In this document: positions 3,375-49,047 of the stretch, piece by piece
Layout: every line of letters begins with the position of its first letter
Numbering within the stretch: position 1 is the stretch's first letter
Assembly (NCBI GenBank): GCA_937915755.1
Contig: CALGGR010000325.1
Location: 6,591 to 70,590 of the forward strand
Length of the DNA stretch: 64,000 nt
Direction: 5' to 3'
From: an uncultured Fretibacterium sp.
GTDB taxonomy: Bacteria > Synergistota > Synergistia > Synergistales > Aminobacteriaceae
Notes under the pieces: model-generated
Database searches by the model: none
What the model saw: only the letters and a program-made list of their open reading frames with translations
Told to the model about the DNA's origin: nothing
Made by a program: the position numbers and the translations under genes

Positions 3375-3377
3375 AAT

Positions 3378-16919: not shown

Positions 16920-16925
16920 TGCTGA

Positions 16926-17999
16926 TTACCCCCTGTCCCTGAACATTAAGCCTACGAAGACGCAGAAAACGAGACCGATTACCGTAACATGCACTCCGTA
17001 TGCTCCGATGCCCGCGCCGCTTGAAGCCGCCGAGAAGTTATGAGCAACCGCCGCGCCCGCGAGCATTCCGATGACAAATATTCCAGCGTCAGAGTCTCCT
17101 TCACCCGCCATGATGAGCTGACGACCCGGACAGCCTCCCGCGAGAGTGAAAGCAAGTCCCGAAAGAACCATGCCCAAGAAGTTCCAGAGTTCATTTGTGT
17201 GGGCTACAGGCTGACCCTCAAAGCCGGGTTTGAAAGTTCCAAGCGCGTAATTTGCGGCAAAGGCTACGACCGTGAAAGCTATTATGCCCTTGAGCAAATA
17301 GGCATCACCCATCATGAGGAAATCACGGATTGCCCCGACCGTGCAGAATCTGCTCCTCTGAGCAAGCCAGCCGACAATCAATCCCGCGCCGAGTGCCAAC
17401 AACACAGGAGCGTGCATTGAGCCTGGCCCGCTTGTCGAGAAGAATATCGGTGCATTCTCTCCGAATTTAGGTGCGAGGAACAAGAACGCGAGAAGTGCTG
17501 CGGCTATCAACGGCATGATTAAGCCCGCTGCTTTCGGATTAGACTCTGATGCTCCGAGACTAAAGCCGTTCCACAAGAACACTATCCCTATGAGTACACC
17601 GACTATCAGGCCGCCGACCCCGTAGAGTGCGTTCCAGTCTCCGCCGGCAACACGGAGATATGCTCTCCAAGGGCAGCCGAGAAACACTAACGCTCCCAGC
17701 ATTGCGAAGAGTCCGAGTCCGAAGCGAACTGCGGGCGATGAGCCTCCGCGCGGGGAATACTCGCGGAATATCAGCGATGAGATGAACGAACCGAGAATGA
17801 AGCCAGGAATCTCGGGGCGTATGTACTGCACAACTCCAGCCCTGTGGAAGCCCAATGCTCCGGCGATGTCGCGCGTGAAACACGCAACGCAGAATCCCAT
17901 GTTGCCGGGATTTCCGAAGTGCGCGAGTGCAACTGCTATTAACCCGATTAGACCGCCGGCGATCCACGGGCCATGACGTGATGTTAATGCTTTGTCCAT
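16926..17999 (-). CDS. yedE: YedE/YeeE-family putative selenium/thiosulfate transporter
   Basis: It is a multi-TM protein with two conserved Cys-containing reentrant motifs (MGFCVACFTRD and SRFCTVGAIRD) and a third (GGCPGRQ). AGGAGG lies upstream of the ATG. Confidence 0.7.
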   Translation of the reverse strand: MDKALTSRHGPWIAGGLIGLIAVALAHFGNPGNMGFCVACFTRDIAGALGFHRAGVVQYIRPEIPGFILGSFISSLIFREYSPRGGSSPAVRFGLGLFAMLGALVFLGCPWRAYLRVAGGDWNALYGVGGLIVGVLIGIVFLWNGFSLGASESNPKAAGLIMPLIAAALLAFLFLAPKFGENAPIFFSTSGPGSMHAPVLLALGAGLIVGWLAQRSRFCTVGAIRDFLMMGDAYLLKGIIAFTVVAFAANYALGTFKPGFEGQPVAHTNELWNFLGMVLSGLAFTLAGGCPGRQLIMAGEGDSDAGIFVIGMLAGAAVAHNFSAASSGAGIGAYGVHVTVIGLVFCVFVGLMFRDRG

Positions 18000-21442: not shown

Positions 21443-21664
21443 TTACTCGTCTATGTCGTGGTAGCCTGCTACCTGTATTTTCTTATCGCCCGCAATTTCC
21501 TCAACCTTGCTTCTCATTTCGCACGGAAATTCACAGGCAAGCCCGCAGCTTGATGACAGCTTTCGCGGAACAGGCGCAATCCTCGCGTTAATTCCCGCAC
21601 CCCTGCATGTCCTCTCGAACATTAAGGCGGCACTCGTTGTCTTGAACGTAGCCAGGCAGCTCAC
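21443..21664 (-). CDS. DUF3343 (putative Se/S carrier-like) protein
   Basis: The 73-aa protein shows the family pattern ...ATFKTTSAALMFERTCRGAGINARIAPVPRKLSSSCGLACEF. Its GTG start overlaps the grdD stop (TAGTG). Confidence 0.55.
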   Translation of the reverse strand: MSCLATFKTTSAALMFERTCRGAGINARIAPVPRKLSSSCGLACEFPCEMRSKVEEIAGDKKIQVAGYHDIDE

Positions 21665-31246: not shown

Positions 31247-33104
31247 AATATCGCTAGTCTTAGGCACAGCCGGACACATAGATCACGGAAAGACAGCCCT
31301 CATCAACGCATTGACAGGCGTAAACTGCGACCGTCTAATCGAGGAGAAACGTCGCGGAATAACCATAGAGCTTGGATTTGCCCCTCTGAAACTTGATGAC
31401 GGCCGTGTTGTCAGCGTTATAGATGTTCCTGGACACGAGAAGTTTATCCGCCAAATGGTTGCTGGAGCGTCTGGGATTGATGCCGCGCTTCTAGTTGTGG
31501 CCGCTGACGAAAGCATTATGCCCCAGACACGCGAACACCTTGCGATTATGGAGCTTTTGGGAGTACATGACGGCCTCGTAGCTGTAACGAAAATCGACAG
31601 GGTCAAAGACGAAGAAGGAATGCTCGAACTTGTCATTGATGATGTCAGGGAGTTCACGCGGGGAACGTTCCTTGAGGGCAAAGCGATAGTTCCAGTGTCA
31701 AGCATAACGGGTGAAAATCTCGGCGAACTTCGCAGAGAGATTACAGCGTTGGTTGACAGAGTCAAAATCAGGCCGAGAAGCGGGGCATTCTTCCTTCCCG
31801 TTGACAGGGCATTCGTGATTTCAGGCTTCGGGACTGTCGTAACGGGAACGGCTTATCATGGAACAATTCAGACCGGCGACAGGGTTGAGATTTTACCTTC
31901 TGGACGCGAGGGAAGAATAAGGACTCTTCAGGTTCACGGGCAGAGCGTTGAAAGCGCGTACGCTGGTCAGAGAGTCGCGTCGAACTTGGCAGGAATTGAC
32001 ATCGACGAAATTTCACGCGGCGATGTAGTTTGCCACAAAGGAGTCTTCAAGGCAACTAAATGTTTCGAGGCTGTGATACGCTTAATCGCCAACGAGCCTC
32101 TCAAGCATTGGCAGCGAGTACATGTTTGCACCGGGACTTCAGAAGTCCTCGCGCGTGTCTCACTCTTGGACTCGAAGCAGATTGAACCGGGACAGGATTC
32201 GCCAGCTCAGTTAGTGCTTGAAGAACCCGTAGTGTGTACGTTCGGGCAGAGATTCATTCTGCGTTTCTACAGCCCACTAATCACGATTGGCGGAGGAGAA
32301 GTGATTTATCCTTACTCCTACAAACCCAGAGGATCAGGCCCAAGAGCGAAGATAATTTCACGAATTGAGCATCTAAGGGAAGCCAAGACACCCGAATCAC
32401 GCTTTGAGTACCTCATAAATGAAGCAGGAAGAATCAGCAAAGCCGAATCGTTACAGCTCATACAGGATACGCAGAAGAACATCGACGCAATAATCGAACG
32501 CCTCACGAACGCCGGAAAAATCTTCGCGCTCGATAATGATTACGTCTCAAGGAAGCATTGTGATGAACTCGTCAACGCTCTCACTGAAACCGTGAGGGAC
32601 TACCAGACTCATTACTCCTCAGAAGCAGGAATGCCCGTCGAAAGTCTCAACACTTCGCGCTCGCTGCTAAATCTTGCAGTAAGCTCCGGCCTTCTTGTTA
32701 TGGAGAGCAACAAAGTACACACGCCTGATTTTGTACCGGAAAATGATGAAGCCTTCAACGCCGGCAAGCAGCACATAAAGGATATATGTATGTCCCACAA
32801 GTGGCAGTTAATCACTCTCGACGAACTCAAAAGGGAGGCAGCACTCCCGGAAAAAGTTTTCAGCAAAGTAATTCAGGGCATGAGGAACGCCGGAGAACTT
32901 GCGCTGATTCCTGAGGGCTTCGTCCTTCTCTCTGAACTTGAAGGGGAAATGCTAGAAATCCTCAAGGGCTTGGGCGAAAAGGTAACTCTTGCTCAGGTCA
33001 GAGACGCTACAGGAAGCACACGGAAATTCATTCTGCCAATACTTGAATATTTCGACAGCAAGGGCTACACAAGGAGGGCGGGTGATTATCGTGTCGTGCT
33101 GTAA
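31239..33104 (+). CDS. selB: Selenocysteine-specific elongation factor SelB
   Basis: The G-domain has GTAGHIDHGKT, DVPGHEKF and TKID motifs. A long C-terminal winged-helix extension is present. It overlaps the selA stop by 8 nt. Confidence 0.9.
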   Translation: MSEISLVLGTAGHIDHGKTALINALTGVNCDRLIEEKRRGITIELGFAPLKLDDGRVVSVIDVPGHEKFIRQMVAGASGIDAALLVVAADESIMPQTREHLAIMELLGVHDGLVAVTKIDRVKDEEGMLELVIDDVREFTRGTFLEGKAIVPVSSITGENLGELRREITALVDRVKIRPRSGAFFLPVDRAFVISGFGTVVTGTAYHGTIQTGDRVEILPSGREGRIRTLQVHGQSVESAYAGQRVASNLAGIDIDEISRGDVVCHKGVFKATKCFEAVIRLIANEPLKHWQRVHVCTGTSEVLARVSLLDSKQIEPGQDSPAQLVLEEPVVCTFGQRFILRFYSPLITIGGGEVIYPYSYKPRGSGPRAKIISRIEHLREAKTPESRFEYLINEAGRISKAESLQLIQDTQKNIDAIIERLTNAGKIFALDNDYVSRKHCDELVNALTETVRDYQTHYSSEAGMPVESLNTSRSLLNLAVSSGLLVMESNKVHTPDFVPENDEAFNAGKQHIKDICMSHKWQLITLDELKREAALPEKVFSKVIQGMRNAGELALIPEGFVLLSELEGEMLEILKGLGEKVTLAQVRDATGSTRKFILPILEYFDSKGYTRRAGDYRVVL

Positions 33105-34149
33105 CGTTCAGGCCGAGAAAAAGAGGCTGACGGAACTCTCGCATTCCAGCGGGTGAGCCGCGAAAATAGGTCCGGCGGATCTAAAGGAAGTATTATCGGG
33201 AATCCCTCAGGAGTACGGCGAAAGAATCTTGTCGTCATGGAACGGAAACGAGGACGCGGCTGTCTTTGAGCTTGACGAGGAACGTTACGGGATCTTGACG
33301 GTTGACTTCATCACTCCTGTGGTCGATGACCCTTTCACGTGGGGGCAGGTTGCGGCGGCTAACTCACTTAGTGATGTATTTGCGATGGGAGGGCGGCCGA
33401 TTGTCGCGCTTAACGTCGTATGCTTTCCGACAAAGTATCTCGAACTCGATGTATTGAAGGACATTCTCGCGGGAGGCTTTGAACGTGTGAAAACTTCGGG
33501 GGCTTTTCTTGTTGGCGGACACAGCGTACAGGACGATGAACCAAAGTACGGCCTCGTGGTTTACGGCGAAGTCAGGAAGTCTCAATTATGGAGGACTACG
33601 GGGGCAATTCCCGGCGACAAGCTCATAATCACAAAGCCAATAGGTACAGGGATAGCGGTAACAGCGATAAAAGCTGACATGATAGATGACGAACGAACCC
33701 GAACTGAAGCGACGGAGAGCATGAGGAAGCTGAACATTTTAGGACTCAGCGACGAACTTCACGCCTCTGTTCACGCGGCTACGGACGTTACGGGCTTCGG
33801 ACTTTCGGGGCATCTCTCGGATATGCTGAGCGATGACATTGACTGCAACGTTTTCCTGCGCGACATACCATCAATCACGGGCGTGAAAGAGCTTGCTGAC
33901 ATGGGGCTTGTACCTGAGGGAGCATACAGGAATCAGGCAGCGTACGAGAAGTTTGCGGATTTTGAGGGCGACTTCGCACGCAGCGATGTCGATATGCTTT
34001 ACGATGCCCAGACTTCAGGGGGCTTGCTTCTTGCTGTTGAACCTGAAAGCTCAGAGGCATTGTTAAATCACGTAAGGCAAAAGGGTTTTGAACGCGCTGA
34101 AATTATAGGCGAGTTCAGACGTGGAACAAAAAGAATAAAAATCGTATAG
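33091..34149 (+). CDS. selD: Selenide, water dikinase SelD, itself a selenoprotein (in-frame TGA = Sec at 33154..33156)
   Basis: Track ORF 33229..34149 is the AIR-synthase-like body. The same frame, read upstream, gives ...KKRLTELSHSSG-U-AAKIGPADLKEVLSG..., which is the SelD glycine-rich N-terminal loop with U in place of the catalytic Cys. The start is either the GTG at 33091 or the GTG at 33082, both downstream of AAGGAGGG. Both overlap the end of selB. Confidence 0.8.
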
Positions 34150-35367: not shown

Positions 35368-35380
35368 AATTTGGTGAAAA

Positions 35381-35412: not shown

Positions 35413-35418
35413 ATAGTC

Positions 35419-39657: not shown

Positions 39658-40671
39658 ATGCAAAATCTCAATCATCTTACACGTGAGAGTCTTACAGAGC
39701 TTGAAAGTGCTCCGCGTACTGCTTCACGTATAATAATTGATTATATAATCTGCCTGATGCCGGTAGTCTTCGGTTGTTTGGCTGTTGCTGAATACATTTT
39801 TGTCCCCAACCTAAGCGGCAATGTCAGCACAAACTCATACATATATTTCTTGTGCGTGCTGATACTTTTAGCCGTTACGTTTTTCATCGCGTCTCTTTTC
39901 AGCAAAAAGGCTTTCTTGATTCTCAGGTATAAAGCTCCGTTTTATGCTTTCGTTTTTATACTGCTGACCTTGTACGACTACATGACGTTGAAGACCGGAA
40001 GACTCGTTCTCCCATATTTCCCGTGGGCTGACCAGATTTTGAATGCCATGTGGGACGACAGAGCATATCTCCTCGATTGTGCTTGCAACTCGTTAAAGTT
40101 ATTGTTCAGCGGTTACTTCTCAGGAGCAATTCTCGGACTCATCACGGGAACAGCCTGCGGTTGCAGTAAAACAGCGGACTATTGGATCTCGCCGTTCATG
40201 AAACTTGTGGGAGCAATTCCATCGCCGACATGGATTCCGATTGTCATGGTCATTGCCTCAACGCTATTCAGCGGTGCGGTCTTCATCATCGCGCTTGGGG
40301 TATGGTACTCGCTCACTATCGCAACGATGACCGGCATACGTAACATTGACCGCTCATTCTATGATGCCGCGAAAACTCTGGGGGCTGGACGAACTCAGCT
40401 AGTGTTTCATGTTGCGCTCCCGTTCGCAGTCCCGAACATACTTCAAGGCTTGACGCAGGGCATGAGTTCAGCGTGTCTCGTTCTTATTACTGCTGAGATG
40501 GTAGGAGTCGAATCGGGGCTAGGCTGGTATGTGTCATGGCAAAAGAGCTGGGCGCAATACGGCAAAATGTACGCCGCAATAGTCGTGTTGTGCGTGGTCT
40601 TTGTGGTCGTTAATCGCGGACTTGAGGCAATAAGGCGGAGGCTTTTGAGGTGGCAGGAGGGCTTAGTGTGA
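39658..40671 (+). CDS. ABC transporter permease, NitT/TauT (nitrate/sulfonate/taurine-type) family, with extended N-terminus
   Basis: It has an EAA-type loop (YDAAKTLGAGRTQLVFHVALP). The core of about 250 aa is preceded by extra hydrophobic helices. Confidence 0.65.
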   Translation: MQNLNHLTRESLTELESAPRTASRIIIDYIICLMPVVFGCLAVAEYIFVPNLSGNVSTNSYIYFLCVLILLAVTFFIASLFSKKAFLILRYKAPFYAFVFILLTLYDYMTLKTGRLVLPYFPWADQILNAMWDDRAYLLDCACNSLKLLFSGYFSGAILGLITGTACGCSKTADYWISPFMKLVGAIPSPTWIPIVMVIASTLFSGAVFIIALGVWYSLTIATMTGIRNIDRSFYDAAKTLGAGRTQLVFHVALPFAVPNILQGLTQGMSSACLVLITAEMVGVESGLGWYVSWQKSWAQYGKMYAAIVVLCVVFVVVNRGLEAIRRRLLRWQEGLV

Positions 40672-40672
40672 T

Positions 40673-41440
40673 ATGAATGTGCTTGAATTGAACCACGTTT
40701 ACAAAAGTTTCGCGCGTTCCGACAGCAACGGAGTTACTCAGGCGGTCAGCGACATAAATTTTTCTGTCAATGACGGTGAATTTCTCTCAATCGTCGGGCC
40801 TTCAGGCTGCGGAAAGTCAACGATAATGCGCCTCATTGCGGGATTGATTTTTCCGACCGCCGGAACAATCACACTCAACGGCGAAATCATCAAGGGCACT
40901 GACACCGAGAGAGGCATGGTGTTTCAGAAGCCTACGTTATTTCTTTGGCTCACTGTAGAAGAAAACCTGAACTTCACGGCTACGATGAAGAAGCAGAGGC
41001 ACAATCCCGACTACATGGCCGAAGCTGAAAGGCTCCTCGAACTTGCGGGGCTTTCGGAGTTCCGTCATGACTTCCCTCACCAGTTATCCGGCGGAATGGC
41101 TCAAAGGCTCGCGCTAATACGAACAATGATAAATCACCCCAAAGTTTTTTTGCTCGATGAACCTTTGGGAGCTTTGGACGCATTCACACGAATGAACATG
41201 CAGGACGAAATCCTCAAATTGTGGCAGAGGTCAAAACATATAGTCTTGATGGTAACTCATGACATCGACGAGGCTATATATCTCGGTACGCGAATAATCG
41301 TAATGGCACCAAGACCCGGAAGGATTCGCGCTGACCTTAGAAATGACATGCCTTATCCGAGAGCGAGAACAAGCGATGAGTTTTTACAGTGGCGAAAAAA
41401 GGTTTTAGAACTGCTCAATTTCGGGCAGACTATAAATTAA
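40673..41440 (+). CDS. ABC transporter ATP-binding protein (NitT/TauT family)
   Basis: It has Walker A GPSGCGKST, the signature LSGGMAQR, and Walker B VFLLDEP. Confidence 0.8.
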   Translation: MNVLELNHVYKSFARSDSNGVTQAVSDINFSVNDGEFLSIVGPSGCGKSTIMRLIAGLIFPTAGTITLNGEIIKGTDTERGMVFQKPTLFLWLTVEENLNFTATMKKQRHNPDYMAEAERLLELAGLSEFRHDFPHQLSGGMAQRLALIRTMINHPKVFLLDEPLGALDAFTRMNMQDEILKLWQRSKHIVLMVTHDIDEAIYLGTRIIVMAPRPGRIRADLRNDMPYPRARTSDEFLQWRKKVLELLNFGQTIN

Positions 41441-41459
41441 ATTCAAGGGGGTATCCGCA

Positions 41460-42467
41460 TTGAAGAAATTATTTGCGGTAATTCTGGCGGTATCGGTTTT
41501 CGTCTCAGGCGCATTCGCTATGACACCTGAGGAGGAAGAAGCAGCATGGAAGAATGAGCCTGCTTACGGGAAGGTCATCAAGGTTGGCTATAACGGCGGG
41601 CTTTGCACGGGGACTCTCGGCATAACTCAGGCAAAGGGCTTCTTCGAGGCTGAAGGTCTGAACGTTGAGCTTGTACGCTATCAGGGCGACACCGTAACTC
41701 TCGGTGATGCTCTCGGAACGGGCAAGATCGACATTGCGGGCGGACACATTGCGACGCTTCTCGTTCCTGCGGCCAACGGGGTACAGATGAAGTTCACGAC
41801 GGGAATGCACACAGGCTGTAAATCACTGTGCGTTCTCGCTGACAGCCCTTACAAGACAACGAAAGACCTTGAGGGCAAAACCATCGCAATCACAACGAGC
41901 ATCGGCGGTTCAGACCAGAACATCACAATGCGTTTCCTTCTGAGGGACGGAATCGACCCTGTTCGCGGTGTGAAGTACAAATCAACTGACTCGGGCGCGG
42001 CGGTTCTTGCGATGCAGAACGGTGAGATAGCGGCGGCACTCTTGAGCGACCAGTTCATTCAGAAGTTCTTGGAGAACGGAACACTCAGGATAATCCGCTC
42101 AATCACGTTTGATGATGACTTCAAGGACGAGACATGCTGCATCTTCGCCGTGTCAAAGGCAATCTGTGAGAATAGCCCAATCACCGCGAAGAAGCTCACC
42201 CGCGCCCACGAGAACGCCCGCAAATGGATCATGGGCAACCGCGAGGAAGCTGTGAGATTGATGCTCGACAACAAATGGGCATCAGGCGATTTCGACAAGG
42301 TTCTTGCGTTCTACAACACTCTCGACTATTCCGTAGACGACGCTACAACTGAGGCAACATTGCGGAAGGTCATCGACGACTACAAGACATGCGGAATCCT
42401 CAACAAGAGCTTTGACACCGAAGAAACACTTGCCCGCGTTTGGGACGGCGTTTTGATGGAGAAATAA
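41460..42467 (+). CDS. NMT1/THI5-like periplasmic substrate-binding protein
   Basis: It has a signal peptide (MKKLFAVILAVSVFVSGAFA) and an SsuA/THI5-type fold. The start is TTG with AAGGGGG 8 nt upstream. Confidence 0.6.
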   Translation: MKKLFAVILAVSVFVSGAFAMTPEEEEAAWKNEPAYGKVIKVGYNGGLCTGTLGITQAKGFFEAEGLNVELVRYQGDTVTLGDALGTGKIDIAGGHIATLLVPAANGVQMKFTTGMHTGCKSLCVLADSPYKTTKDLEGKTIAITTSIGGSDQNITMRFLLRDGIDPVRGVKYKSTDSGAAVLAMQNGEIAAALLSDQFIQKFLENGTLRIIRSITFDDDFKDETCCIFAVSKAICENSPITAKKLTRAHENARKWIMGNREEAVRLMLDNKWASGDFDKVLAFYNTLDYSVDDATTEATLRKVIDDYKTCGILNKSFDTEETLARVWDGVLMEK

Positions 42468-42479
42468 GGAGGCATTATC

Positions 42480-42878
42480 ATGAAGAAATTATTGTGTGCG
42501 TTATTAGTGGTACTTGCGGTTGCGGGTGTCGTACTCGCTAAGGATTACAAGGCTCAGGACGCTGATGTCGCAGGGCCGAGAGCAAAGTTGAAAGAAGCCG
42601 CGCCGGAAATGATGGGTGCGTTCGGAAATCTTGGGGCAGTCGTACTGAAGGACGGTGCAATTTCCCTCAAGGAGAAGGAACTGATTGCTGTAGCGTTGAG
42701 CATTCAGAACAGGTGCGAAACTTGCATAATGTCCCATGTCAAGAACGCGATAAAAGCCGGAGTTACTCGTGAGGAACTCGTCGACATGCTTGGTGTCTGC
42801 GTACTCATGGGAGGCGGGCCTAATTCCGCGTACGCCGCTACGGTTCTTGAAGTCTACGACCAGTTCACGGCAAAATAA
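42480..42878 (+). CDS. Exported AhpD/carboxymuconolactone-decarboxylase-fold CxxC protein
   Basis: It has an N-terminal signal peptide (MKKLLCALLVVLAVAGVVLA) and the AhpD-type motif NRCETCIMSHV. It is the last gene of the ABC operon. Confidence 0.6.
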   Translation: MKKLLCALLVVLAVAGVVLAKDYKAQDADVAGPRAKLKEAAPEMMGAFGNLGAVVLKDGAISLKEKELIAVALSIQNRCETCIMSHVKNAIKAGVTREELVDMLGVCVLMGGGPNSAYAATVLEVYDQFTAK

Positions 42879-42895: not shown

Positions 42896-42935
42896 CAGGG
42901 CAGGGGGAGAAAGTTCTTTCTGTCCTGTTTCTGTT
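42896..42935 (+). terminator. Terminator-like hairpin
   Basis: CAGGGCAG (42896-42903) pairs with CTGTCCTG (42920-42927) with one mismatch, followed by TTTCTGTT. Confidence 0.4.
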
Positions 42936-42950
42936 ACAGGAGCAATGAAA

Positions 42951-44096
42951 ATGCTATCACTACCCAAGAATTTTGAGAGCTTCAACGATGCCCGCAAAAA
43001 ATCATTCATGGCACTCTATGAGGCTAAACAGGCCGGGAAGAAAGTTGTCGGCACATTCTGCTCATATACTCCGGTCGAACTTATCAACGCCGCCGGAGCA
43101 ATCTCGGTCGGACTTTGCGGGAAATCCGAGCAGGGAATAGCCGAAGCTGAGACGCGGCTTCCGAAAACTCTCTGCCCTTTAATCAAAGCAAGCTACGGAA
43201 TGGCGATGACTGACCAATGCCCATACTTCTATTTCTCTGACGGAATTTTAGCCGAGACGACCTGCGACGGTAAGAAGAAGATGTATGAGCTTATGAGCCT
43301 CTTGAAGCCCGTACATGTAATGAACTTGCCGCAGGGAAGAGATCAGGCAATGGCCATCGAATCGTGGACTGAGGAAGTTAAACGCGCCGCGAAGTTCCTT
43401 GAGGGACTGTTCAATGTAACGATAACTGAGGACAAACTTCATGACGCTATCGTTTACCGCAACAAAGTACGCAAAGCCATCGTTGATTTGTACGAGGTGG
43501 CAAAGATGAAACCGTCTCCAGTCTCAGGCTACGAGATAAGCACGGTTGCTGAGAGCGCGGATTTCCACTTCACCGACGATGACCTTGTGGCTAAAATCGA
43601 GAGGACTACGCGCGAGTTCAAGGAACGTATACGCAATGACGGAGAAGGAAGGCCGAGAGTCCTCATAACAGGCTGCCCGAATGCAGGAGTGCGCGACAAA
43701 ATCATCAAGCGTCTTGAGGAACTTGGAGCTGATTATGTCTGTGCTGACAACTGCGCCGGGCCGAGAACACAGAAGTTTATGGTCGACGAAAATTCAGACC
43801 CTTACAGGGCAATCGCTGAACGTTATCTCAAAATCAACTGTTCCGTTATGACCCCGAATACTGCGCGCTTTGATGACATCAAGGCACTTATTGACGAGTA
43901 TCAGGCTGACGGTGTAATAGAGATAGTTCTTCACGGCTGCCACACATTCGCGGTTGAAGCATACACGACGATGAACATTGTGCAGAACGATCTCGGTATG
44001 CCTTACATGAGGCTTGATACGGATTTTTCGCAGTCTGACAAAGGACAGATAGAAACAAGGCTCGGAGCATTCATTGAAATGATGACTGCGGCCTGA
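42951..44096 (+). CDS. Double-cubane-cluster / 2-hydroxyacyl-CoA dehydratase-family reductase subunit, paralogue 1
   Basis: The motif run is KKVVGTFCSYTPVE...LPKTLCPLIKASYG...QCPYFYFSDGILAETTCDGKKKM. I preferred the ATG at 42951 (GGAG 8 nt upstream) over 42945. Confidence 0.65.
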   Translation: MLSLPKNFESFNDARKKSFMALYEAKQAGKKVVGTFCSYTPVELINAAGAISVGLCGKSEQGIAEAETRLPKTLCPLIKASYGMAMTDQCPYFYFSDGILAETTCDGKKKMYELMSLLKPVHVMNLPQGRDQAMAIESWTEEVKRAAKFLEGLFNVTITEDKLHDAIVYRNKVRKAIVDLYEVAKMKPSPVSGYEISTVAESADFHFTDDDLVAKIERTTREFKERIRNDGEGRPRVLITGCPNAGVRDKIIKRLEELGADYVCADNCAGPRTQKFMVDENSDPYRAIAERYLKINCSVMTPNTARFDDIKALIDEYQADGVIEIVLHGCHTFAVEAYTTMNIVQNDLGMPYMRLDTDFSQSDKGQIETRLGAFIEMMTAA

Positions 44097-44121
44097 GAAT
44101 AATTTACAGGAGGTTTTAAGA

Positions 44122-44703
44122 ATGGTAAAAGTTGATGCAATGGGCAAACTTTGCCCCGAACCAGTCATAATGACAAAGGCAGAAGTCGAGAAGGGCGCGG
44201 ACGAAATCGAGGTACTCGTCGACAACGATATAGCAGTCTCGAATGTAACACGTCTCCTTGAAGGTAAGGGCTTCAGCGTTGAGCTTTCAAGGTCAGGAAA
44301 CGAACGCAAACTCACGGCCAAGAAGACAGCTTCAGGTTCAGCACCTGCTGCGTCGTCAAAGCGTGATGAACTTCTCGCAATCCTCGTTGCCCATGATGTT
44401 CTCGGCGGTAACGACAAGGAACTCGGCGAAGTCCTCATGAAAGCGTTTCTAGGCTGCATCTCGAAACTTTCACGCCGCCCCGCTGTTATGGCGTTCATGA
44501 ATGAGGGCGTGAAGCTGGTACTGCCTGAGTCGTCAGCCTGCGATTACATCAAGGAGCTTGAGAAGGCCGGAACAAAGATTCTCGTCTGCGGAACATGCAC
44601 AACGCATTTCAACATCACTGACAAAATCGCGGTCGGTACGATTTCCAACATGTTCGAGATTATGGAGATGATTACCGGCGCGGACAATACGCTGATATTC
44701 TAA
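44122..44703 (+). CDS. yedF: YedF-type selenium-metabolism protein (TusA/SirA N-domain fused to a DsrE-like C-domain)
   Basis: The N-terminus is VDAMGKLCPEPVIMTKAEV (CPxP). The C-terminal half has DKELGEVLMKAF...VCGTC. It is about 193 aa, matching the two-domain YedF architecture. Confidence 0.65.
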   Translation: MVKVDAMGKLCPEPVIMTKAEVEKGADEIEVLVDNDIAVSNVTRLLEGKGFSVELSRSGNERKLTAKKTASGSAPAASSKRDELLAILVAHDVLGGNDKELGEVLMKAFLGCISKLSRRPAVMAFMNEGVKLVLPESSACDYIKELEKAGTKILVCGTCTTHFNITDKIAVGTISNMFEIMEMITGADNTLIF

Positions 44704-45459
44704 ATGCTTTACGCGGGTATAGACATCGGTTCAACGGCGGCTAAAGCTGTATTGATGAATGAAAACAGAGACGAGATTCTCGGGCGTAAACTGATGCCCT
44801 CAGGCTGGAACAGCAGGGAGACGGCTCAGGAAATGCTTGAATGGCTCTTGTCTCTGGGACATTCACGCGATGACATCAAAATTATTGCGACTGGTTACGG
44901 GCGTATATCGGTGCCTTACGCTGACAGCACATTAACTGAGATTACATGTCATGGAAAGGGCGCGGCATTTCTTGGCGGTGAAAATCTCACGGTCATAGAC
45001 ATTGGAGGTCAGGACACGAAGGTAATAATTCTGAGGAACGGGCGGGTTATTGACTTCGTTATGAATGATAAATGCTCGGCTGGAACTGGGAAATTCCTTG
45101 AGGTCATGGCCAACCGAATGGGATTGACGCTTCCTGAATTTTTCGGGCTTGCTGAAAACGGAAAGGACATCAAAATTTCGTCGATGTGTACGGTCTTTGC
45201 TGAGAGCGAAATTGTCAGCCTCATGGGACTTGGAACTCCGCGCGAGGATATAGCCTGCGGAGCTGTCGGTTCAGTTGTGTCGAAGGTTGCGACTTTAGTC
45301 AGCCGTAAAAATCCATCGGGCGGTTACTTTTTGACGGGCGGATTTTGTGAAAGCACCCTTTTGATTCGTAAGCTGTCGGAAACTTTAGGCTCTGAAGTCA
45401 GGACGAGTCCTGATGCGCGTTTTGCAGGAGCGATAGGGGCGGCGTTGCTGGGCAAATGA
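44704..45459 (+). CDS. Acyl-CoA dehydratase/benzoyl-CoA reductase-type ATP-dependent activase (BcrAD/BadFG/HgdC family)
   Basis: It has the ASKHA-fold motifs GIDIGSTAAKAVL and IDIGGQDTK. The bridging-cluster Cys context is NDKCSAGTGKFLE ... MCTVFAESE. Confidence 0.8.
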   Translation: MLYAGIDIGSTAAKAVLMNENRDEILGRKLMPSGWNSRETAQEMLEWLLSLGHSRDDIKIIATGYGRISVPYADSTLTEITCHGKGAAFLGGENLTVIDIGGQDTKVIILRNGRVIDFVMNDKCSAGTGKFLEVMANRMGLTLPEFFGLAENGKDIKISSMCTVFAESEIVSLMGLGTPREDIACGAVGSVVSKVATLVSRKNPSGGYFLTGGFCESTLLIRKLSETLGSEVRTSPDARFAGAIGAALLGK

Positions 45460-46088
45460 TTCTTTATGAGCTAGAGAATCTCCGGCGAATGGCATATGTC
45501 AGGGCTGTTATGAGTGATTACGTCGTGGGCTACATCGGAATGAAGATACCCATCGAGATATTTCATGCGCTTGGGCTTATGGCTGTTCCTGTTTACGGTA
45601 TCGACAGGGAAATCCTGAAGTTTTCACGCGAGGAGAAGCTATGCCCTTTGGTTGATGCAACGATAACCTATGCGAAGACGGATAAATGCCCGCTCATTCA
45701 CAGCGCAAAGATGATTGTGATTGATGATACATGCGATTTGATGAGGGGAAAAATGTCCGGGCTTCAGGGGAAATGCATTCACTTTTACGACAACGACCGT
45801 GAAAATTTGATTGCGGTTATCGAAGAAGTTTACGGCAGAAAGTTTCAGGCTGAAAATCTGAGTTCTGTTCAGAAAGAGCTTGAACGTATACACAGCCGCG
45901 TAAAGTCATTGACGAATGACGAGGTTCAGAGCTTCATTCTTGAATATTACGTCAACTTTCTGGACTTGCCTGAACGCATGAATTTCCTTGACACTTTGCA
46001 GGGTAAAGAAATTCGTTTGTCTCATGAGTTCGTCGAGACTATTTATCGTTGTCCCGAATGCGGGGGCAAATTTTTGAGGGAGGGATAG
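45456..46088 (+). CDS. Truncated dehydratase/double-cubane-family paralogue with a C-terminal CPECGG knuckle
   Basis: The 210-aa protein keeps VVGYIGMKIPIEIFHALG...LCPLVDATITYAKTDKCPLI...IDDTCD. It lacks the C-terminal half of the family. Confidence 0.5.
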   Translation: MILYELENLRRMAYVRAVMSDYVVGYIGMKIPIEIFHALGLMAVPVYGIDREILKFSREEKLCPLVDATITYAKTDKCPLIHSAKMIVIDDTCDLMRGKMSGLQGKCIHFYDNDRENLIAVIEEVYGRKFQAENLSSVQKELERIHSRVKSLTNDEVQSFILEYYVNFLDLPERMNFLDTLQGKEIRLSHEFVETIYRCPECGGKFLREG

Positions 46089-46092
46089 ATTT

Positions 46093-47370
46093 ATGGCAGA
46101 TTATCACGAAATGTGGGAAGCTCTTGGAATGGACGTTAAAACACACGACCTTCTATGTGAGGCACTTCCCGGAGCGTTCGGAGATGTTTACTTGTCGCAG
46201 GAGAACAGGCCGGAAGGTATGGACTACTTCAACATGGTGGTCGCTGAAATTCACGGCATAAGGCCCGCTGAACTCGTCGAGCATAAGAAGAAAGGCGGAA
46301 AGGTCGTCGGGACATTCTGCATTCATGTACCCGATGAAATTCCGATTTCGGCAGGAGCTATTGCTACGGGGTTATGCTCAGGGTCTCAGTTCTGGGTTCC
46401 GGGAGGCGAAAAGAAGTTACCCGCCGCAACTTGTCCGCTGATTAAGGCGAGTTTGGGCGCGAGGTTTGACAGGACATGCCCGTTCTTCAGGCTCGCGGAT
46501 TTGTTCGTCGGTGAGACCACGTGCGACGGTAAGAAAAAGGCTTGGGAAATTCTCGCTGAGGACGCGCCAATGTACATCATGGACATTCCGCAGATGAAAA
46601 GGCCGAAAGACTATGAGCATTGGAACGAGGAAATTCACGGCTATCTGAAGAAGTGTGAGGAGCTTACAGGCAACGAGGTAACTCCCGCAAGCCTAAGAAG
46701 CGCGATTATTCTCCTCAACAAGAAGCGCAAGGCTCTCCATAGGCTCGCAAGTTTCCGAAAACTCGACAACATTCCCATAAGCGGGAAAGATGTTCTTCTC
46801 ATCACGCAGATAGCATTCTACGATGACCCCGCAAGAATCACAGCGCAAATCAACAAGCTCTGCGATGAACTTGACGAACGCGCAAAGAATAATGTCTCAG
46901 TCTTCCCGAAAGGAACAAAGAGGATTTTGCTGACTGGTACACCGCTTTCAATCCCGAACTGGAAACTTCACCACATCATTGAAACTCTCGGCGGTGCTGT
47001 GGTATGCGAGGAGATGTGCACGGGAATACGTTATTACGAGAAGTGCGTCGACGAATCAGGCTCGACGATTGACGAGATGATTACGCATTTGACTGAGCGT
47101 TACATGGGAGCGATTCACTGTGCTTGCTTCACGCCGAACTCAGAGCGGATCGACGACATCAAACGTCTGGCTAAAGAGTACAAGGCTGACGGAGTTATTG
47201 ACGTGAACCTGAAGTTCTGCAACATCTATGACACTGAGGGCTACTTCGTCGAACGTGAGCTGAATAACGCGGGTATTCCCGTTCTCGGAATAGAGACCGA
47301 CTACACGGATCAGGACGCTGAACAGCTCAAGACCCGAATCGGCGCGTTCTTGGAGATGCTGGGGAATTGA
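46093..47370 (+). CDS. Double-cubane-cluster / 2-hydroxyacyl-CoA dehydratase-family reductase subunit, paralogue 2
   Basis: The motif run is GKVVGTFCIHVPDE...LPAATCPLIKASLG...TCPFFRLADLFVGETTCDGKKKA...CEEMCTG...HCACF. Confidence 0.65.
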   Translation: MADYHEMWEALGMDVKTHDLLCEALPGAFGDVYLSQENRPEGMDYFNMVVAEIHGIRPAELVEHKKKGGKVVGTFCIHVPDEIPISAGAIATGLCSGSQFWVPGGEKKLPAATCPLIKASLGARFDRTCPFFRLADLFVGETTCDGKKKAWEILAEDAPMYIMDIPQMKRPKDYEHWNEEIHGYLKKCEELTGNEVTPASLRSAIILLNKKRKALHRLASFRKLDNIPISGKDVLLITQIAFYDDPARITAQINKLCDELDERAKNNVSVFPKGTKRILLTGTPLSIPNWKLHHIIETLGGAVVCEEMCTGIRYYEKCVDESGSTIDEMITHLTERYMGAIHCACFTPNSERIDDIKRLAKEYKADGVIDVNLKFCNIYDTEGYFVERELNNAGIPVLGIETDYTDQDAEQLKTRIGAFLEMLGN

Positions 47371-47624
47371 GCGCGAGGCATTACGTTTTATTTCCCGACG
47401 TAACGAACGCACAGAGGCTCTATGACATTCTCAAGGCTGGGGGCATAAAATGCACATTCGCTCCCACGCCTAGAGAGGCCGACAAATGTTGCGGGGTCTG
47501 TGTTCTCTTTCAAGATGGCAACGACAGAGAGGCAATCGAAAAATTCATCTCTGAGAACGGAATAAATATCTTGAGATTTTACGACGGAGAATCAGGCGAC
47601 CCCCAAAGAATGAAATTTTGCTGA
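47367..47624 (+). CDS. DUF3343 (putative Se/S carrier-like) protein, second copy
   Basis: The 85-aa protein reads HYVLFPDVTNAQRLYDILKAGGIKCTFAPTPREADKCCGVCVLF. Its TTG start overlaps the upstream stop (TTGA). Confidence 0.55.
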   Translation: MSARHYVLFPDVTNAQRLYDILKAGGIKCTFAPTPREADKCCGVCVLFQDGNDREAIEKFISENGINILRFYDGESGDPQRMKFC

Positions 47625-47643
47625 ATTGAGGTGGAATTGAAGT

Positions 47644-48549
47644 ATGGATTTTCTGAAACGTTATCCTATTCCGATAGCTGGATTGATTCTCGGGCTTTTC
47701 GCGCTTGGGAACTTGATACAGAGTTACAGTGCTGATGCGAGGATTGCACTCGGAGTAACCGCATTGGTCTTATACGTTCCTTATCTGCTGAAAGTTGCTG
47801 TACTGAACGTTAAACTGCGTGAGCCGCTTGACAATCCTGTAGCTGCGAGCGTCTTCCCGACGTTCACGATGGCCACGATGCTTCTCGCGGGCTACGTGAA
47901 ACCTTACAGCGCTGGGTGTGCAAGCATAATATGGTACGCGGGATTAGCCGGCCATGTACTGCTGATAATATGGTTCACGATGAAGTTTCTGCTTCGTAAC
48001 TTTGCAATCAAAAAGGTATTCCCGTCATGGTTCATTGTCTACGTCGGGATTGCTGTAGCGAGTGTTTCTGCGCCTGTTACGGGACAGTTAGCGATAGGGC
48101 GGTATGCGTTCTGGTTCGCGTTCGTAACTTACATCTGCCTTCTCGTCATAGTCTGCAAGAGAGTGTTCCTCGTCGGCGAAATTCCTGCTCCGGCCATGCC
48201 TACAACGGTAATATTTGCGGCTCCTGCTTCACTTCTGCTCGCGGGGTACATGGTTTCGTTCCCGGAAAAGGAAGCATGGATTGTGTACTTGCTGTTCGCA
48301 ATGTCGATGTTCTTCTGGGTCGTGGGAATGATGTATTTCGCAAAGACTTTCAGGGGCGCGTTCATGCCTAGTCATTCAGCTTTCACGTTCCCGTTGGTGA
48401 TAAGCGGAATTGCAACTAAGATGTCAGCGCAGTTCACGGGATTTTCGTGGCAGGGTGCATTTGCTGACATTCAGACGTTGATTGCGGCAGTAATCGTTTT
48501 GTGGGTACTTGCGCGCTACGTGATGTTTCTGTTCAACGGCGCGAAGTAA
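47644..48549 (+). CDS. TDT/TehA/SLAC1-family (tellurite-resistance/dicarboxylate-type) anion channel or transporter
   Basis: The 301-aa protein has about 10 TM helices. The N-terminus PIPIAGLILGLFALGNL is typical of the family. Confidence 0.6.
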   Translation: MDFLKRYPIPIAGLILGLFALGNLIQSYSADARIALGVTALVLYVPYLLKVAVLNVKLREPLDNPVAASVFPTFTMATMLLAGYVKPYSAGCASIIWYAGLAGHVLLIIWFTMKFLLRNFAIKKVFPSWFIVYVGIAVASVSAPVTGQLAIGRYAFWFAFVTYICLLVIVCKRVFLVGEIPAPAMPTTVIFAAPASLLLAGYMVSFPEKEAWIVYLLFAMSMFFWVVGMMYFAKTFRGAFMPSHSAFTFPLVISGIATKMSAQFTGFSWQGAFADIQTLIAAVIVLWVLARYVMFLFNGAK

Positions 48550-48576
48550 GGTAAAAATTCAAGGGGGTAAATTTCA

Positions 48577-49047
48577 ATGACACGTGAAGAATATGTGAAG
48601 TCAATCCGTGATACCGCAGAAGAATATTTCAGGAGCGGTACATACTTCTGTTCTGAGGCGGTACTTCAGACGATCAACGATGCGCTTGGCCAGCCTTTCA
48701 GCGAGGAAATCGTGAAGATGGCATCAAGTTTCCCGATTGGAATGGGGAAGGCTCAGTGCTTATGCGGTGCGGTTTCGGGCGGAGAGATGGCACTCGGTAT
48801 CGTCTATGGGCGAGTGAAGGGTCAGCCTATGGATCCTAAGATGTTTGTGGTTGCGAAGGGCCTTCATGATTTCGTGAAAGAGAAATACGGGGCAACATGC
48901 TGCCGTGTTATGACGCGACAGTGGGCAGGGGATAATTTCATGTCGCCTGAGCGCAAGGCACATTGCATCGAGATTACGGGTGTAGTTGCGGAGTGGGTAG
49001 CGAACACACTCATTGACGACGGGAAGCTGGTAGTACCTGCCGCGTAA
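48577..49047 (+). CDS. C_GCAxxG_C_C-family putative redox protein
   Basis: The family motif is C-x-CGAVSGG (KAQCLCGAVSGG), with downstream Cys pairs (ATCCRVM, AHCIEI). GGGGG lies upstream of the ATG. Confidence 0.65.
   Translation: MTREEYVKSIRDTAEEYFRSGTYFCSEAVLQTINDALGQPFSEEIVKMASSFPIGMGKAQCLCGAVSGGEMALGIVYGRVKGQPMDPKMFVVAKGLHDFVKEKYGATCCRVMTRQWAGDNFMSPERKAHCIEITGVVAEWVANTLIDDGKLVVPAA

Follow-up and report, generated by a model that had tools for sequence, protein, structure and literature searches.

Double-cubane proteins (DCCPs) are ATP-powered Fe-S reductases. A comparative study placed 955 of 970 DCCPs in genomes that encode SelD (SelD+), and suggested a role in selenium processing or a selenium cofactor (Haft & Gwadz 2022). 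Activase and HgdD-like genes were also listed as STRING partners of YedE, YedF, DUF3343 and a LysR regulator in Slackia (Lin et al. 2015, Table 1), in a study that found DUF3343 in SelD-lacking organisms too, and no Se-specific subfamily of it. The channels of class I DCCPs have room for small molecules only (Jeoung 2020). Here we describe a cassette of eight genes in a 64-kb stretch of DNA from an uncultured Fretibacterium sp. (the window; Table 1). Because YtiA is a DUF3343 protein, yjiM-yjiL-ytiA of E. coli is the same triad as the DCCP, activase and DUF3343 of the cassette, whereas the Carboxydothermus-type DCCP comes without the DUF3343 and Se neighbours. An earlier reading of the sequence alone (the sequence-only reading) knew of no described system of this composition. 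This was partly right: the module as such is undescribed, but the idea was partly anticipated by the two comparative studies. The pairing of such a reductase with Se/S carriers, met beside selenium-utilisation genes in many phyla of anaerobes and in E. coli, makes a selenium role of the family testable.

Table 1. Features of the cassette and of its surroundings in the window.
Feature	Position	Strand	Description
SclA-like gene	13641..14795	-	EF2568/SclA-family cysteine desulfurase or selenocysteine-lyase homologue; TIGR01977 396.8 bits (cutoff 377)
tusA	16701-16919	-	small TusA, CPQP motif; adjoins YedE (joint span 16701..17999)
YedE	16926-17999	-	putative selenium transporter; TIGR04112 483 bits (cutoff 200)
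Second DUF3343 copy	21443..21664	-	motif APVPR..SSSCG; at the end of grdC/grdD genes
selA	29843-31246	(+)	precedes SelD
selB	31239-33104	(+)	between selA and SelD
SelD with Sec	33091..34149	+	in-frame TGA at 33154-33156, reads SSG-U-AAKIGP
trxB-like gene	34165-35367	(+)	after SelD
Sao-like ABC importer and secreted AhpD-like CxxC protein	39658..42878	+	directly upstream of the cassette
Upstream hairpin	42896..42927	+	14-bp stem, weak U-tract; between AhpD-like gene and DCCP-A
Eight-gene cassette	42945-49047	+	tightly spaced ORFs
DCCP-A	42945..44096	+	class II (YjiM-like) double-cubane protein, no N-terminal extension
YedF	44122..44703	+	TusA-like N-terminal domain (CPEP Cys11), DsrE-like C-terminal domain (C156xxC159)
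Activase	44704..45459	+	HgdC/DCCP-R-type, ATP-dependent ('archerase')
Half-DCCP	45456..46088	+	half-length DCCP paralogue, 210 aa, N-terminal domain only
DCCP-B	46093..47370	+	class I double-cubane protein with N-terminal channel-closing extension
DUF3343	47367..47624	+	Se_S_carrier, 85 aa; TTG start overlaps DCCP-B stop
SLAC1/TDT-family protein	47644..48549	+	membrane protein, 301 aa, distant family member; accessory gene
C_GCAxxG_C_C family protein	48577..49047	+	accessory gene
Downstream hairpin	about 49095-49122		bidirectional, terminator-like, between convergent genes; A-run upstream, T-run downstream

Model scores and motifs support the assignment of both large subunits as bona fide double-cubane proteins, and not CoA-ester dehydratases. 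DCCP-A and DCCP-B scored 490.7 and 484 bits against the NF040772 double-cubane equivalog (cutoff 350), and each keeps all seven motif Cys residues (C39, 58, 77, 107, 270, 299 and 332 in DCCP-A; C76, 95, 114, 144, 309, 343 and 376 in DCCP-B), which bears out the sequence-only reading of two full-length, Cys-rich paralogues of reductase type. DCCP-A is 42% identical to E. coli YjiM over its full length, and the crystallised DCCP (6ENO) aligns end to end with DCCP-B (449 bits, residues 2-423). Against the HadC equivalog they gave 91-99 bits (cutoff 700). The third paralogue is truncated, as had been noticed: it matches HGD-D over its N-terminal part only (32 bits), and retains the invariant C63, C78 and C93 together with a terminal CPEC at 199-202, in which C199 (CPxC) is nearly invariant. 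The remaining motif Cys residues and the entire C-terminal domain are missing. Its predicted structure (pLDDT 89.7) has a TMq of 0.65 to MbdN, DCCP and HadC.

The family calls made for the smaller proteins were upheld for the activase (TIGR00241, 245.8 bits, cutoff 125.4), the two-domain YedF with its CPEP motif (TIGR03527, 173.9 bits, cutoff 110), DUF3343 (PF11823, 70.1 bits, cutoff 25) and the C_GCAxxG_C_C protein (PF09719, 97.6 bits, cutoff 27; TIGR01909, 76 bits, cutoff 47.4). The activase conserves its cluster Cys motifs (DKC124SAGTG and SMC162TVFAE), and its structure-sequence matches include 1HUX (180 bits) and 7YYL_E (130 bits). DUF3343 has a ferredoxin-like fold and carries its invariant motif, APTPR..(C)CG, in a loop. 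The membrane protein had been called a TehA/TDT-family channel. Membership of the SLAC1/TDT family holds, although as a distant relative (PF03595, 64 bits, cutoff 27.9), but an identity as TehA orthologue was rejected, with 32 bits against the TehA equivalog (cutoff 342) and 29 against the TDT subfamily model (cutoff 237). The genes for this protein and the C_GCAxxG_C_C protein always travel together, were found in Synergistaceae cassettes only, and are missing from several to most sister cassettes. They are lineage-specific add-ons, and form a weak point of the sequence-only reading.

All eight ORFs lie on the + strand, separated in order by +25, 0, −4, +4, −4, +19 and +27 nt, in keeping with the earlier description of packed, co-directional genes. 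The window itself is a selenium island: besides selA, selB and Sec-selD it contains yedE, tusA, an sclA-like gene and two clusters of grd selenoprotein genes. The upstream SelD, reported earlier to contain Sec, proved real. The Sao-like importer next to the cassette comprises a permease, an ATPase and a binding protein, the last with cysteines at C49 and CC226-227.

To see how widely this association extends, the 80 closest relatives of DCCP-B were surveyed, with one genome per species, from at least 8 phyla. DUF3343 was present within 5 kb in 68 of the 80 loci, mostly directly downstream (a same-strand arrangement seen in at least 59 of the 76 loci that could be tested), and 62 of the 75 DUF3343 matches in 1.24 Mb sit no more than 600 nt from a DCCP stop codon. 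Within the same distance of 5 kb we found an activase (60/80), an SclA-type selenocysteine-lyase homologue (31/80) and a YedF/TusA-type match (20/80). True SelD occurred in 13 of the 80 loci, and within 8 kb in 9 of the 35 with at least 8 kb on each side. A LysR regulator, matching the NCBIfam 'selenium metabolism-associated' equivalog (374 and 254 bits, cutoff 250), was found in 12/80. The NifS-like partners belong to the SclA family by TIGR01977/EF2568 (424-444 bits, cutoff 377); they miss the SclA exception cutoff (365-389 bits vs 525), and NF040779 SclA is their second-best model. Clustering of all neighbouring ORFs in the 80 loci, unbiased in that no expected families were seeded, gave no recurrent family beyond the module and Se genes, a generic ABC ATPase and LysR. 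Among Synergistaceae, the six-gene core (DCCP-A, YedF, activase, half-DCCP, DCCP-B, DUF3343) was found again at loci whose genomic surroundings are otherwise unrelated.

The survey thus supports a DCCP/DUF3343/activase module that recurs in Se islands across many phyla and is no one-off, a tie to selenium trafficking stronger and more general than a single sequence could reveal. The linkage is subfamily-specific, since in the biochemically studied clade (Carboxydothermus, Desulfosporosinus, Thermincola) the DCCP is accompanied by its activase only, and neither DUF3343 nor Se genes were found up to 8 kb away.

Family memberships, cluster-motif cysteines, translational coupling and cross-phylum gene linkage can be read from the sequences; from these we infer what the enzyme acts on, which way Se flows, and what the half-DCCP, the channel and the C_GCAxxG_C_C protein do. 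The cassette would encode a very-low-potential, ATP-driven reductase, in which one archerase-type activase may serve both the class I and the class II DCCP, and would form part of the cellular selenium-assimilation machinery. It is the gene neighbours that point to selenium as the DCCP substrate. The most likely role, which we favour tentatively and at slightly less than an even chance, is to mobilise selenium from its carriers by ATP-driven reduction, giving selenide for SelD. DUF3343 (through its only invariant Cys), YedF (through its CPxP Cys) or both would carry Se(0)-level selenium in perselenide or selenotrisulfide form, the selenium having been imported (by YedE, or in Synergistaceae perhaps by the SLAC1-like channel) or released from selenocysteine by an SclA-type lyase. 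The carriers would hand it to the double-cubane cluster, where electrons from ferredoxin or flavodoxin, boosted by ATP hydrolysis at the activase, would reduce it to HSe-, the substrate of SelD.

Calculated from standard potentials, Se(0)/HSe- lies at about −0.72 V (pH 7, 1 M) or −0.54 V (1 uM), far below S(0)/HS- at about −0.26 V, so that, of the two, only selenium requires a sub-ferredoxin reductant. The small-molecule-only channels of class I DCCPs (Jeoung 2020) fit a selenium substrate, but their narrowness argues against direct access of a protein-bound perselenide. Most SelD-containing organisms lack DCCPs, so a selenide-generating step of this kind is not generally required, and selenite can be converted to selenide by thiol and thioredoxin systems. 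The presence of DUF3343 in SelD-lacking organisms, without a Se-specific subfamily (Lin et al. 2015), also weighs against selenide generation. Of the dedicated ATP-driven chalcogen reductase proposed in the sequence-only reading, the double-cubane identity and the selenium linkage therefore stand; the selenide chemistry is an interpretation, and delivery of selenium into a cofactor fits the same data.

The latter is the main rival, and a cofactor-maturation role fits the same neighbours equally well, although we consider it unlikely overall. Here Se would be built into the double-cubane cofactor, for example as a bridging atom, with the SclA-like lyase, DUF3343, YedF and SelD as its suppliers, and the enzyme would act on some unrelated small molecule; these DCCPs would then represent a fourth selenium-dependent trait. 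In E. faecalis, SclA and SelD together serve the Mo hydroxylases, whose Se cofactor is labile, and the NF040779 SclA model ranks second for the partners here. Desulfurase, carrier and metalloenzyme side by side resemble the nifS/nifU logic, and the half-DCCP with its three invariant Cys residues could be an assembly scaffold. This rival accounts just as well for the confinement of DCCPs to SelD+ genomes; Haft & Gwadz (2022) name it as a formal possibility and mention a '2(4Fe-4S)-Se' cluster. However, the crystallised DCCP, made in E. coli, is active with [8Fe-9S], and the Chy-type clade has no Se neighbours. The lack of recurrent 'substrate pathway' genes near the module in the 80 loci would be odd for a catabolic enzyme, and the one-to-one translational coupling of DUF3343 with the structural gene suits a subunit or substrate carrier better than it does a maturation factor. 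Sulfur might instead be the element handled, with DUF3343, YedF (TusA/DsrE-like) and the desulfurase as a persulfide relay feeding [8Fe-9S] assembly or a persulfide/polysulfide substrate, and the Se neighbours reflecting shared S/Se carriers and an anaerobic lifestyle. TusA, DsrE and class V desulfurase families mainly traffic sulfur, the Pfam name is 'Se/S carrier', TIGR01977 is annotated just as 'cysteine desulfurase family protein', and both the missed SclA exception cutoff and the distribution of DUF3343 noted above agree with this. We nevertheless judge it quite improbable: true SelD, SelA/B, YedE of the seleno_YedE equivalog and the Se-metabolism LysR adjoin far above chance (estimated at well under 1% for the SelD frequency in fully flanked loci), the SelD+ bias of DCCPs points the same way, and S(0) reduction would need no ATP-boosted reductant.

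Detoxification, with a TehA-like channel moving tellurite or selenite in or out and the reductase precipitating it, is suggested by the SLAC1/TDT gene and the redox-type C_GCAxxG_C_C gene at the 3' end of the operon, and by a rhodanese elsewhere in the window with a weak ExtH-like match (38.9 bits vs 200). We regard it as very improbable, because the channel is no TehA orthologue, which leaves the tellurite angle without support, and is confined to some Synergistaceae cassettes; neither selenite nor tellurite needs an ATP-driven reductant for its thermodynamically easy reduction to the element, and the neighbours (SelD, SelA/B, Sec lyase) are assimilatory. We give hardly any credence to an enzyme of the 2-hydroxyacyl-CoA dehydratase or benzoyl-CoA-reductase type acting on a CoA ester, with S/Se genes nearby by coincidence. 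All three paralogues do belong to Pfam HGD-D, and class II DCCPs such as DCCP-A, lacking the channel-closing helices, might take larger substrates. This reading is largely refuted by the HadC, BzdN and BcrC equivalog scores (60-99 bits vs cutoffs of 420-700), the complete seven-Cys DCC motif, and the absence of CoA-transferase, acyl-CoA dehydrogenase and ligase genes from the cassette and the 80 loci; DCCP-DUF3343 adjacency in ~80% of loci across phyla is no coincidence.

The eight-gene block was confirmed to lie between two hairpins, as first described, and both are real (upstream, dG −19.9 kcal/mol, z −3.8; downstream, dG −18.4 kcal/mol, z −3.2), but the upstream one has a weak U-tract and stops just 18 nt, AGGAG RBS included, short of the ATG of DCCP-A. 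With no room for a promoter in that interval, transcripts from the upstream ABC/AhpD genes may read through, and the hairpin may act as a leader or as a partial terminator.

The eight genes of the cassette, all on the + strand, lie exactly where the sequence-only reading had drawn them: a class II double-cubane cluster protein (DCCP-A), YedF, an HgdC/DCCP-R-type activase, a 210-aa DCCP paralogue (half-DCCP), a class I double-cubane cluster protein (DCCP-B), the Se_S_carrier-family protein DUF3343, a SLAC1/TDT channel and a C_GCAxxG_C_C protein. Consecutive genes are spaced by +25, 0, −4, +4, −4, +19 and +27 nt, so that several are translationally coupled. Profile searches upheld the earlier family assignments, the channel only as a distant SLAC1/TDT member. 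Each of the two flanking hairpins is much more stable than shuffled sequence (upstream −19.9 kcal/mol, z = −3.8; downstream −18.4 kcal/mol, z = −3.2). The upstream hairpin has a weak U-tract and its 3' end is 18 nt before the first ATG of the cassette, leaving no room for a promoter, so that the transcript start must lie upstream of it. This hairpin is either a leader or a site of read-through from the preceding ABC/AhpD genes, and an Rfam scan of window 28-50 kb did not reveal any riboswitch or known leader that would account for it.

DCCP-A and DCCP-B are predicted double-cubane proteins, judged by equivalog score and Cys motif. Both exceed the 350-bit cutoff of the double-cubane equivalog NF040772 (490.7 and 484 bits, respectively), are full-length HGD-D proteins in Pfam, and contain the complete seven-Cys motif of six cluster ligands and one Cys near the channel opening, read from the alignment to 6ENO (reference positions C76, 95, 114, 144, 309, 341 and 374). 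Residues 2-423 of DCCP-B were aligned with 6ENO (449 bits, ~48% identity), and alignment from residue 2 to the 6ENO end indicates that DCCP-B has the N-terminal helices closing the CoA funnel, as in class I. For all 85 anchor-type relatives the alignment to DCCP-B likewise begins no later than its residue 15. The first residue of DCCP-A corresponds to position 61 or beyond, so that it lacks an N-terminal extension and is class II-like. Class I DCCPs have been viewed as primed for small molecules (Jeoung et al. 2020).

The activase gene of the cassette encodes a TIGR00241 protein (245.8 bits, cutoff 125.4) that is homologous to 1HUX, 4EHT and 7YYL_E, matches HgdC, HadI, MbdQ and DCCP-R, and conserves both cluster-ligand motifs, with Cys124 and Cys162. 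It is predicted to be the cognate ATP-dependent reductase (archerase), with a [4Fe-4S] cluster bridging its subunits, expected of a DCCP. YedF matches TIGR03527 (173.9 bits, cutoff 110) and both PF01206 and PF02635, as expected for a TusA-like domain, with C11 within LCPEP, joined to a DsrE-like one. DUF3343 (PF11823, 70.1 bits, cutoff 25) has one Cys that is 100% conserved among 82 DCCP-linked members, in the motif APTPR..S.(C)CG. Its predicted structure is a small ferredoxin-like beta-alpha-beta-beta-alpha-beta fold (pLDDT 75.5) with the invariant PTPR...CCG segment on a loop. A sequence search of the PDB with DUF3343 returned noise only, and a fold search returned generic ferredoxin-like, PII and ACT matches (E ~0.01), with no informative structural relative.

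The half-DCCP reaches only 39.9 bits against NF040772 and is not a member of the double-cubane family. Of the seven motif Cys residues it keeps the equivalents of C114 and C144 only, plus C129 (6ENO numbering), and alone it cannot bind a double cubane. Its predicted structure (pLDDT 89.7) matches the N-terminal half of the DCCP/BzdN/HadC fold. The family comprises 53 sequences, with Synergistaceae as the source wherever a name is given; C63, C78 and C93 are invariant in its alignment, and one Cys of the C-terminal CPxC is nearly so. A zinc-finger assignment for the C-terminal CPECGG was dropped, the C2H2 match spanning 15 residues only. A genome scan with the half-DCCP alone gave no matches, because the family is confined to Synergistaceae and relatives. 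Diverged relatives (42-72 bits) were observed in five loci from Peptoniphilaceae, Ezakiella and Anaerococcus (L011-L013, L015 and L017), as 258-429-aa stop-to-stop ORFs flanked by the activase and class I DCCP genes. Occupation of the same slot as in Synergistaceae suggests that the half-DCCP is an older, degenerating third paralogue.

The remaining two genes are lineage-specific accessories. The channel had been called TehA-type, an assignment that did not hold: it scored 31.9 against the TehA equivalog NF008032 (cutoff 342) and 29.4 against the TDT subfamily TIGR00816 (cutoff 237), and passed only the broad Pfam SLAC1 model (64, cutoff 27.9). The C_GCAxxG_C_C protein passed PF09719 (97.6, cutoff 27) and TIGR01909 (76.1, cutoff 47.4), and carries the motifs C61-L-C63-GAVSG and C108C109. 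This pair is present in only some Synergistaceae cassettes, in one case split off by an opposite-strand gene.

To investigate the occurrence of the module, one genome per GTDB species was scanned with a DCCP alignment, and all stop-to-stop ORFs around the 80 best DCCP-B relatives (51-93% identity) were searched with profiles seeded from the proteins of the window. The hosts include Bacillota families, Actinomycetota (Slackia, Eggerthellaceae, Coriobacteriaceae), Synergistota, Bacteroidota, Melainabacteria, WOR-3, Chloroflexota, Desulfofervidaceae and one archaeon.

Neighbours of the 80 best DCCP-B relatives
Neighbour and position	Occurrence
DUF3343 immediately downstream of DCCP, same strand	at least 59 of 76 testable loci
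DUF3343 within 5 kb of DCCP	68 of 80 loci
DUF3343 matches within 600 nt of DCCP stop	62 of 75 matches in 1.24 Mb
Activase within 5 kb of DCCP	60 of 80 loci
SclA-like within 5 kb of DCCP	31 of 80 loci
YedF/TusA-type match within 5 kb of DCCP	20 of 80 loci
True SelD in locus	13 of 80 loci
True SelD within 8 kb of DCCP	9 of 35 loci whose flanks both reach 8 kb or more
YedE in locus	4 loci
SelA/B in locus	4 loci

The match in L069 and the second match in L051 are other AIRS-family proteins and were dropped from the SelD counts. The NifS-like neighbours pass the EF2568/SclA-family model, and a recurrent LysR passes the NCBIfam 'selenium metabolism-associated LysR' equivalog; all-against-all clustering of the neighbouring ORFs of the 80 loci did not reveal any further recurrent family except generic ABC ATPases and LysR. 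Gene order differs by lineage (sclA-DCCP-DUF3343-activase in Lachnospiraceae, activase-DCCP-DUF3343 in others), and maintenance of the DCCP-DUF3343 adjacency despite this variation argues for selection, not shared ancestry alone. At least 12 loci, spread over several phyla, have class II (DCCP-A-like) copies beside the class I gene, and Slackia, Alloprevotella and several Clostridia have full islands. The six-gene core from DCCP-A to DUF3343 recurs within Synergistaceae in unrelated genomic contexts, with DCCP-A missing in one lineage.

Among the most distant survey loci (51-53% identity), DUF3343 is often missing, and several have adjacent SelD, YedE or YedF. Carboxydothermus, Desulfosporosinus and Thermincola have the DCCP and activase only, with no DUF3343 or selenium genes within 8 kb. 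The lack of selenium neighbours in the clade of the biochemically studied enzyme indicates that the linkage defines a subfamily, not all DCCPs; the double-cubane family has >7,800 homologues at E <= 1e-50. In a contig from an uncultured archaeon (L088, 8773-12454), the class I DCCP gene has a SelD-like gene on each side (260 bits each); no activase was detected in this locus, including ~7.5 kb downstream of the DCCP.

The cassette sits in a dense selenium island, and the stretch from the SclA homologue to selD is near-complete as such.

Features of the window
Feature	Position	Strand	Remark
Arsenosugar-biosynthesis-like cluster	~750-3400	-	
Tandem-rhodanese protein	7892-9280	+	462 aa
SclA/EF2568-family lyase homologue	13641-14795		
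Small TusA and YedE	16701-17999		'putative selenium transporter' equivalog (YedE)
Second DUF3343	21443-21664		with grdC/D
SelD with Sec	33091-34149		in-frame TGA at 33154
Thioredoxin-reductase (trxB-like) homologue	34165-35367	+	right after selD
Tandem paralogous ORFs	35371-37420	+	349 and 338 aa
lplA-gcvH-radical-SAM trio	37417-39411		3.5 kb upstream of cassette
ABC importer and secreted AhpD-like protein	39658-42878	+	directly upstream of cassette
Cassette	42945-49047	+	eight genes

The stretch from the SclA homologue to selD also holds a two-component system, a BCCT betaine transporter, selA and selB, and the window has two glycine/betaine-reductase clusters (grdX/E/B, grdC/D, a grdA split at Sec, thioredoxin, and a second grdE/B). 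The Sec-containing SelD of the sequence-only reading is real (TIGR00476 300.6, cutoff 125), its Sec codon being in frame. YedE scores 483 bits against TIGR04112 (cutoff 200), and SelA and SelB domains are present in the window. By these profile matches, the host genome is predicted to have the selenium-utilisation trait (SelD, SelA, SelB, YedE). Following the Sec-selD gene are the trxB-like gene, lplA, gcvH, a radical SAM gene, the ABC importer, a secreted AhpD-like gene and the cassette.

[quoted passage not shown] For the importer proteins, SaoP, SaoA and SaoX rank first or second among the NCBIfam models, but none of the scores reaches the cutoff (99.9 of 295, 239.4 of 360 and 64.8 of 300, respectively), and SaoL (MerB-like), SaoC, SaoE, SaoT and SaoD are absent from the called genes of the window, so that it does not qualify as a SAO system. 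The binding protein contains C49 and CC226-227, matching the SaoX hallmarks C50 and CC224-225. In the permease, Cys273 in SSACLVLITAEM may occupy the gating position that is Sec in SaoP.

Comparison with the Carboxydothermus hydrogenoformans DCCP/DCCP-R system (6ENO, 7YYL; Jeoung & Dobbek), which has no known physiological substrate, shows that DCCP-B is likewise class I with all seven Cys residues and that the cassette activase is homologous to DCCP-R (130 bits), with the cluster Cys residues kept. Loci of the Carboxydothermus type consist of DCCP and activase alone, whereas the cassette provides one activase for a class I DCCP, a class II DCCP and a half-DCCP, is interleaved with YedF and DUF3343, and lies inside a selenium island.

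Over its full length, DCCP-A shares 42% identity with the class II archetype, YjiM of E. coli, which also lacks the N-terminal extension. In E. coli K-12, yjiM (class II DCCP) and yjiL (activase) are followed by ytiA (b4715; NC_000913.3 4563668-4563925, L093 5669-5926 on the - strand), which shares 4 nt with the end of yjiL and encodes an 85-aa uncharacterised protein. With 48.9 bits against PF11823 (cutoff 25), YtiA belongs to the DUF3343 family, and E. coli K-12 thus carries a minimal DCCP-activase-DUF3343 triad, an operon that differs from the cassette in having no class I copy, YedF or half-DCCP. The yedE/yedF and sel genes of E. coli are located elsewhere in the genome. No published function for yjiM, yjiL or ytiA was found in the literature searched; in one transcriptome table, yjiM and yjiL vary in step with anaerobic genes (hyc, hyp and pfl).

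The families that cluster here, and in the related loci, are those of the selenium islands of Lin et al. 2015 (YedE, YedF, LysR_Se, DUF3343, Sec lyase). In their Table 1, an activase and HgdD-like genes of Slackia appear among the STRING partners, without comment or analysis. DCCPs had not been defined by 2015, and DUF3343 is here coupled most tightly to the DCCP, not to YedF or the lyase. Haft & Gwadz (bioRxiv 2022) found DCCPs almost exclusively in SelD+ genomes (955 of 970), often <5 kb from a special ABC importer, and speculated on selenium processing; YedF, DUF3343 and SclA are unmentioned there. No description of the DCCP-DUF3343 module or of the YtiA assignment was found in the searchable literature. 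The component families are all known and the composite DCCP/Se-carrier system appears to be new, its core idea being partly anticipated.

The cassette shows an ATP-driven DCCP reductase genetically coupled to single-Cys carriers and selenium-assimilation genes. As the most economical reading, to which we give somewhat less than an even chance, we infer that the module supplies SelD with HSe- by reducing carrier-bound selenium at the Se(0) level. DUF3343 or YedF would carry this selenium in perselenide or selenotrisulfide form, having received it from an SclA-type lyase or by import. Calculated from standard potentials, the Se(0)/HSe- couple lies at ~-0.72 V at pH 7 (-0.54 V at 1 uM), and S(0)/HS- at ~-0.26 V. 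The low Se(0)/HSe- potential plausibly places selenide formation among the few assimilatory steps that need a sub-ferredoxin, ATP-boosted electron.

The chief rival, in which selenium is built into a cofactor (a 'formal possibility' in Haft & Gwadz), is fitted equally well by the sclA-carrier-enzyme arrangement and by the restriction to SelD+ genomes, but we consider it unlikely. Slightly less likely is a specific form of it, in which the DUF3343-linked DCCPs would constitute a fourth Se-dependent trait, with SclA-type lyase, DUF3343, YedF and SelD building a Se-containing double-cubane cofactor, e.g. [8Fe-8S-Se] with bridging selenide, and the half-DCCP perhaps serving as an assembly scaffold. 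Such a cofactor, if real, would be the first in biology known to combine iron, sulfur and selenium. A sulfur-only relay is similarly improbable, as it leaves the adjacency of SelD, SelA/B, YedE and LysR_Sec unexplained.

Two further functions are poorly supported. Detoxification of tellurite or selenite would draw on the channel, and the tellurite-resistance reading was dropped because the channel is lineage-specific and not orthologous to TehA. As for a CoA-ester dehydratase role, the superfamily fold and the archerase mechanism of ATP-driven electron injection are shared with the 2-hydroxyacyl-CoA dehydratases and the benzoyl-CoA reductases of class I (HgdAB/HgdC, HadBC/HadI, BcrABCD, BzdNOPQ). 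Those enzymes are alpha/beta heterodimers with [4Fe-4S] clusters and a funnel for CoA esters, whereas the cassette proteins have the seven-Cys double-cubane motif, no CoA-metabolism genes alongside, and scores far below the HadC (91.6 and 99.2 bits, cutoff 700), BzdN (81 and 85 bits, cutoff 454) and BcrC (60 and 32 bits, cutoff 421) equivalogs, and this reading was dropped.

Two questions meet in this module: the physiological substrate of DCCPs, with their nitrogenase-like cofactor, and the route by which selenide is produced in anaerobes and passed specifically to SelD. A conserved DCCP-DUF3343-activase module in selenium islands of many phyla gives one DCCP subfamily a concrete function to test and the orphan carriers DUF3343 and YedF a client enzyme. 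Because YtiA is a DUF3343 protein, the hypothesis can be tested in a standard genetic model, and either outcome, a selenide-generating reductase or a Se-containing Fe-S cofactor, would be significant.

Several other features of the window were observed. The trxB-like gene encodes a C-terminal extension of ~95 aa; in the sister contig L008 (15850-17042) it is called as two pieces, suggesting a frameshift or assembly difference. The tandem paralogous ORFs between this gene and lplA have no NCBIfam match and no Pfam family on record, and the presence of one copy only in the near-identical L008 indicates a recent tandem duplication. In Carboxydothermus islandicus (L090, 321-9510), the DCCP-activase pair is followed by gcvT-gcvH-gcvPA-gcvPB, an ORF, a radical SAM gene and lplA. 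This ORF, compared as a possible shared lipoylation partner, has no similarity to the tandem paralogues, and the proximity of lplA, gcvH and radical SAM genes to a DCCP in both Carboxydothermus and the window is probably a coincidence, since the gcv/lplA link was not seen in the 80-locus survey. The arsenosugar-like cluster comprises AhpD/CMD, radical SAM with DUF3641, GT2 glycosyltransferase and CofC/DUF2064-like proteins; after it come a protein with a CCG domain and membrane proteins with VTT domains. The tandem-rhodanese protein is weakly similar to ExtH, a rhodanese of selenite/tellurite reduction (38.9 bits, cutoff 200), and also to 3-mercaptopyruvate sulfurtransferase.
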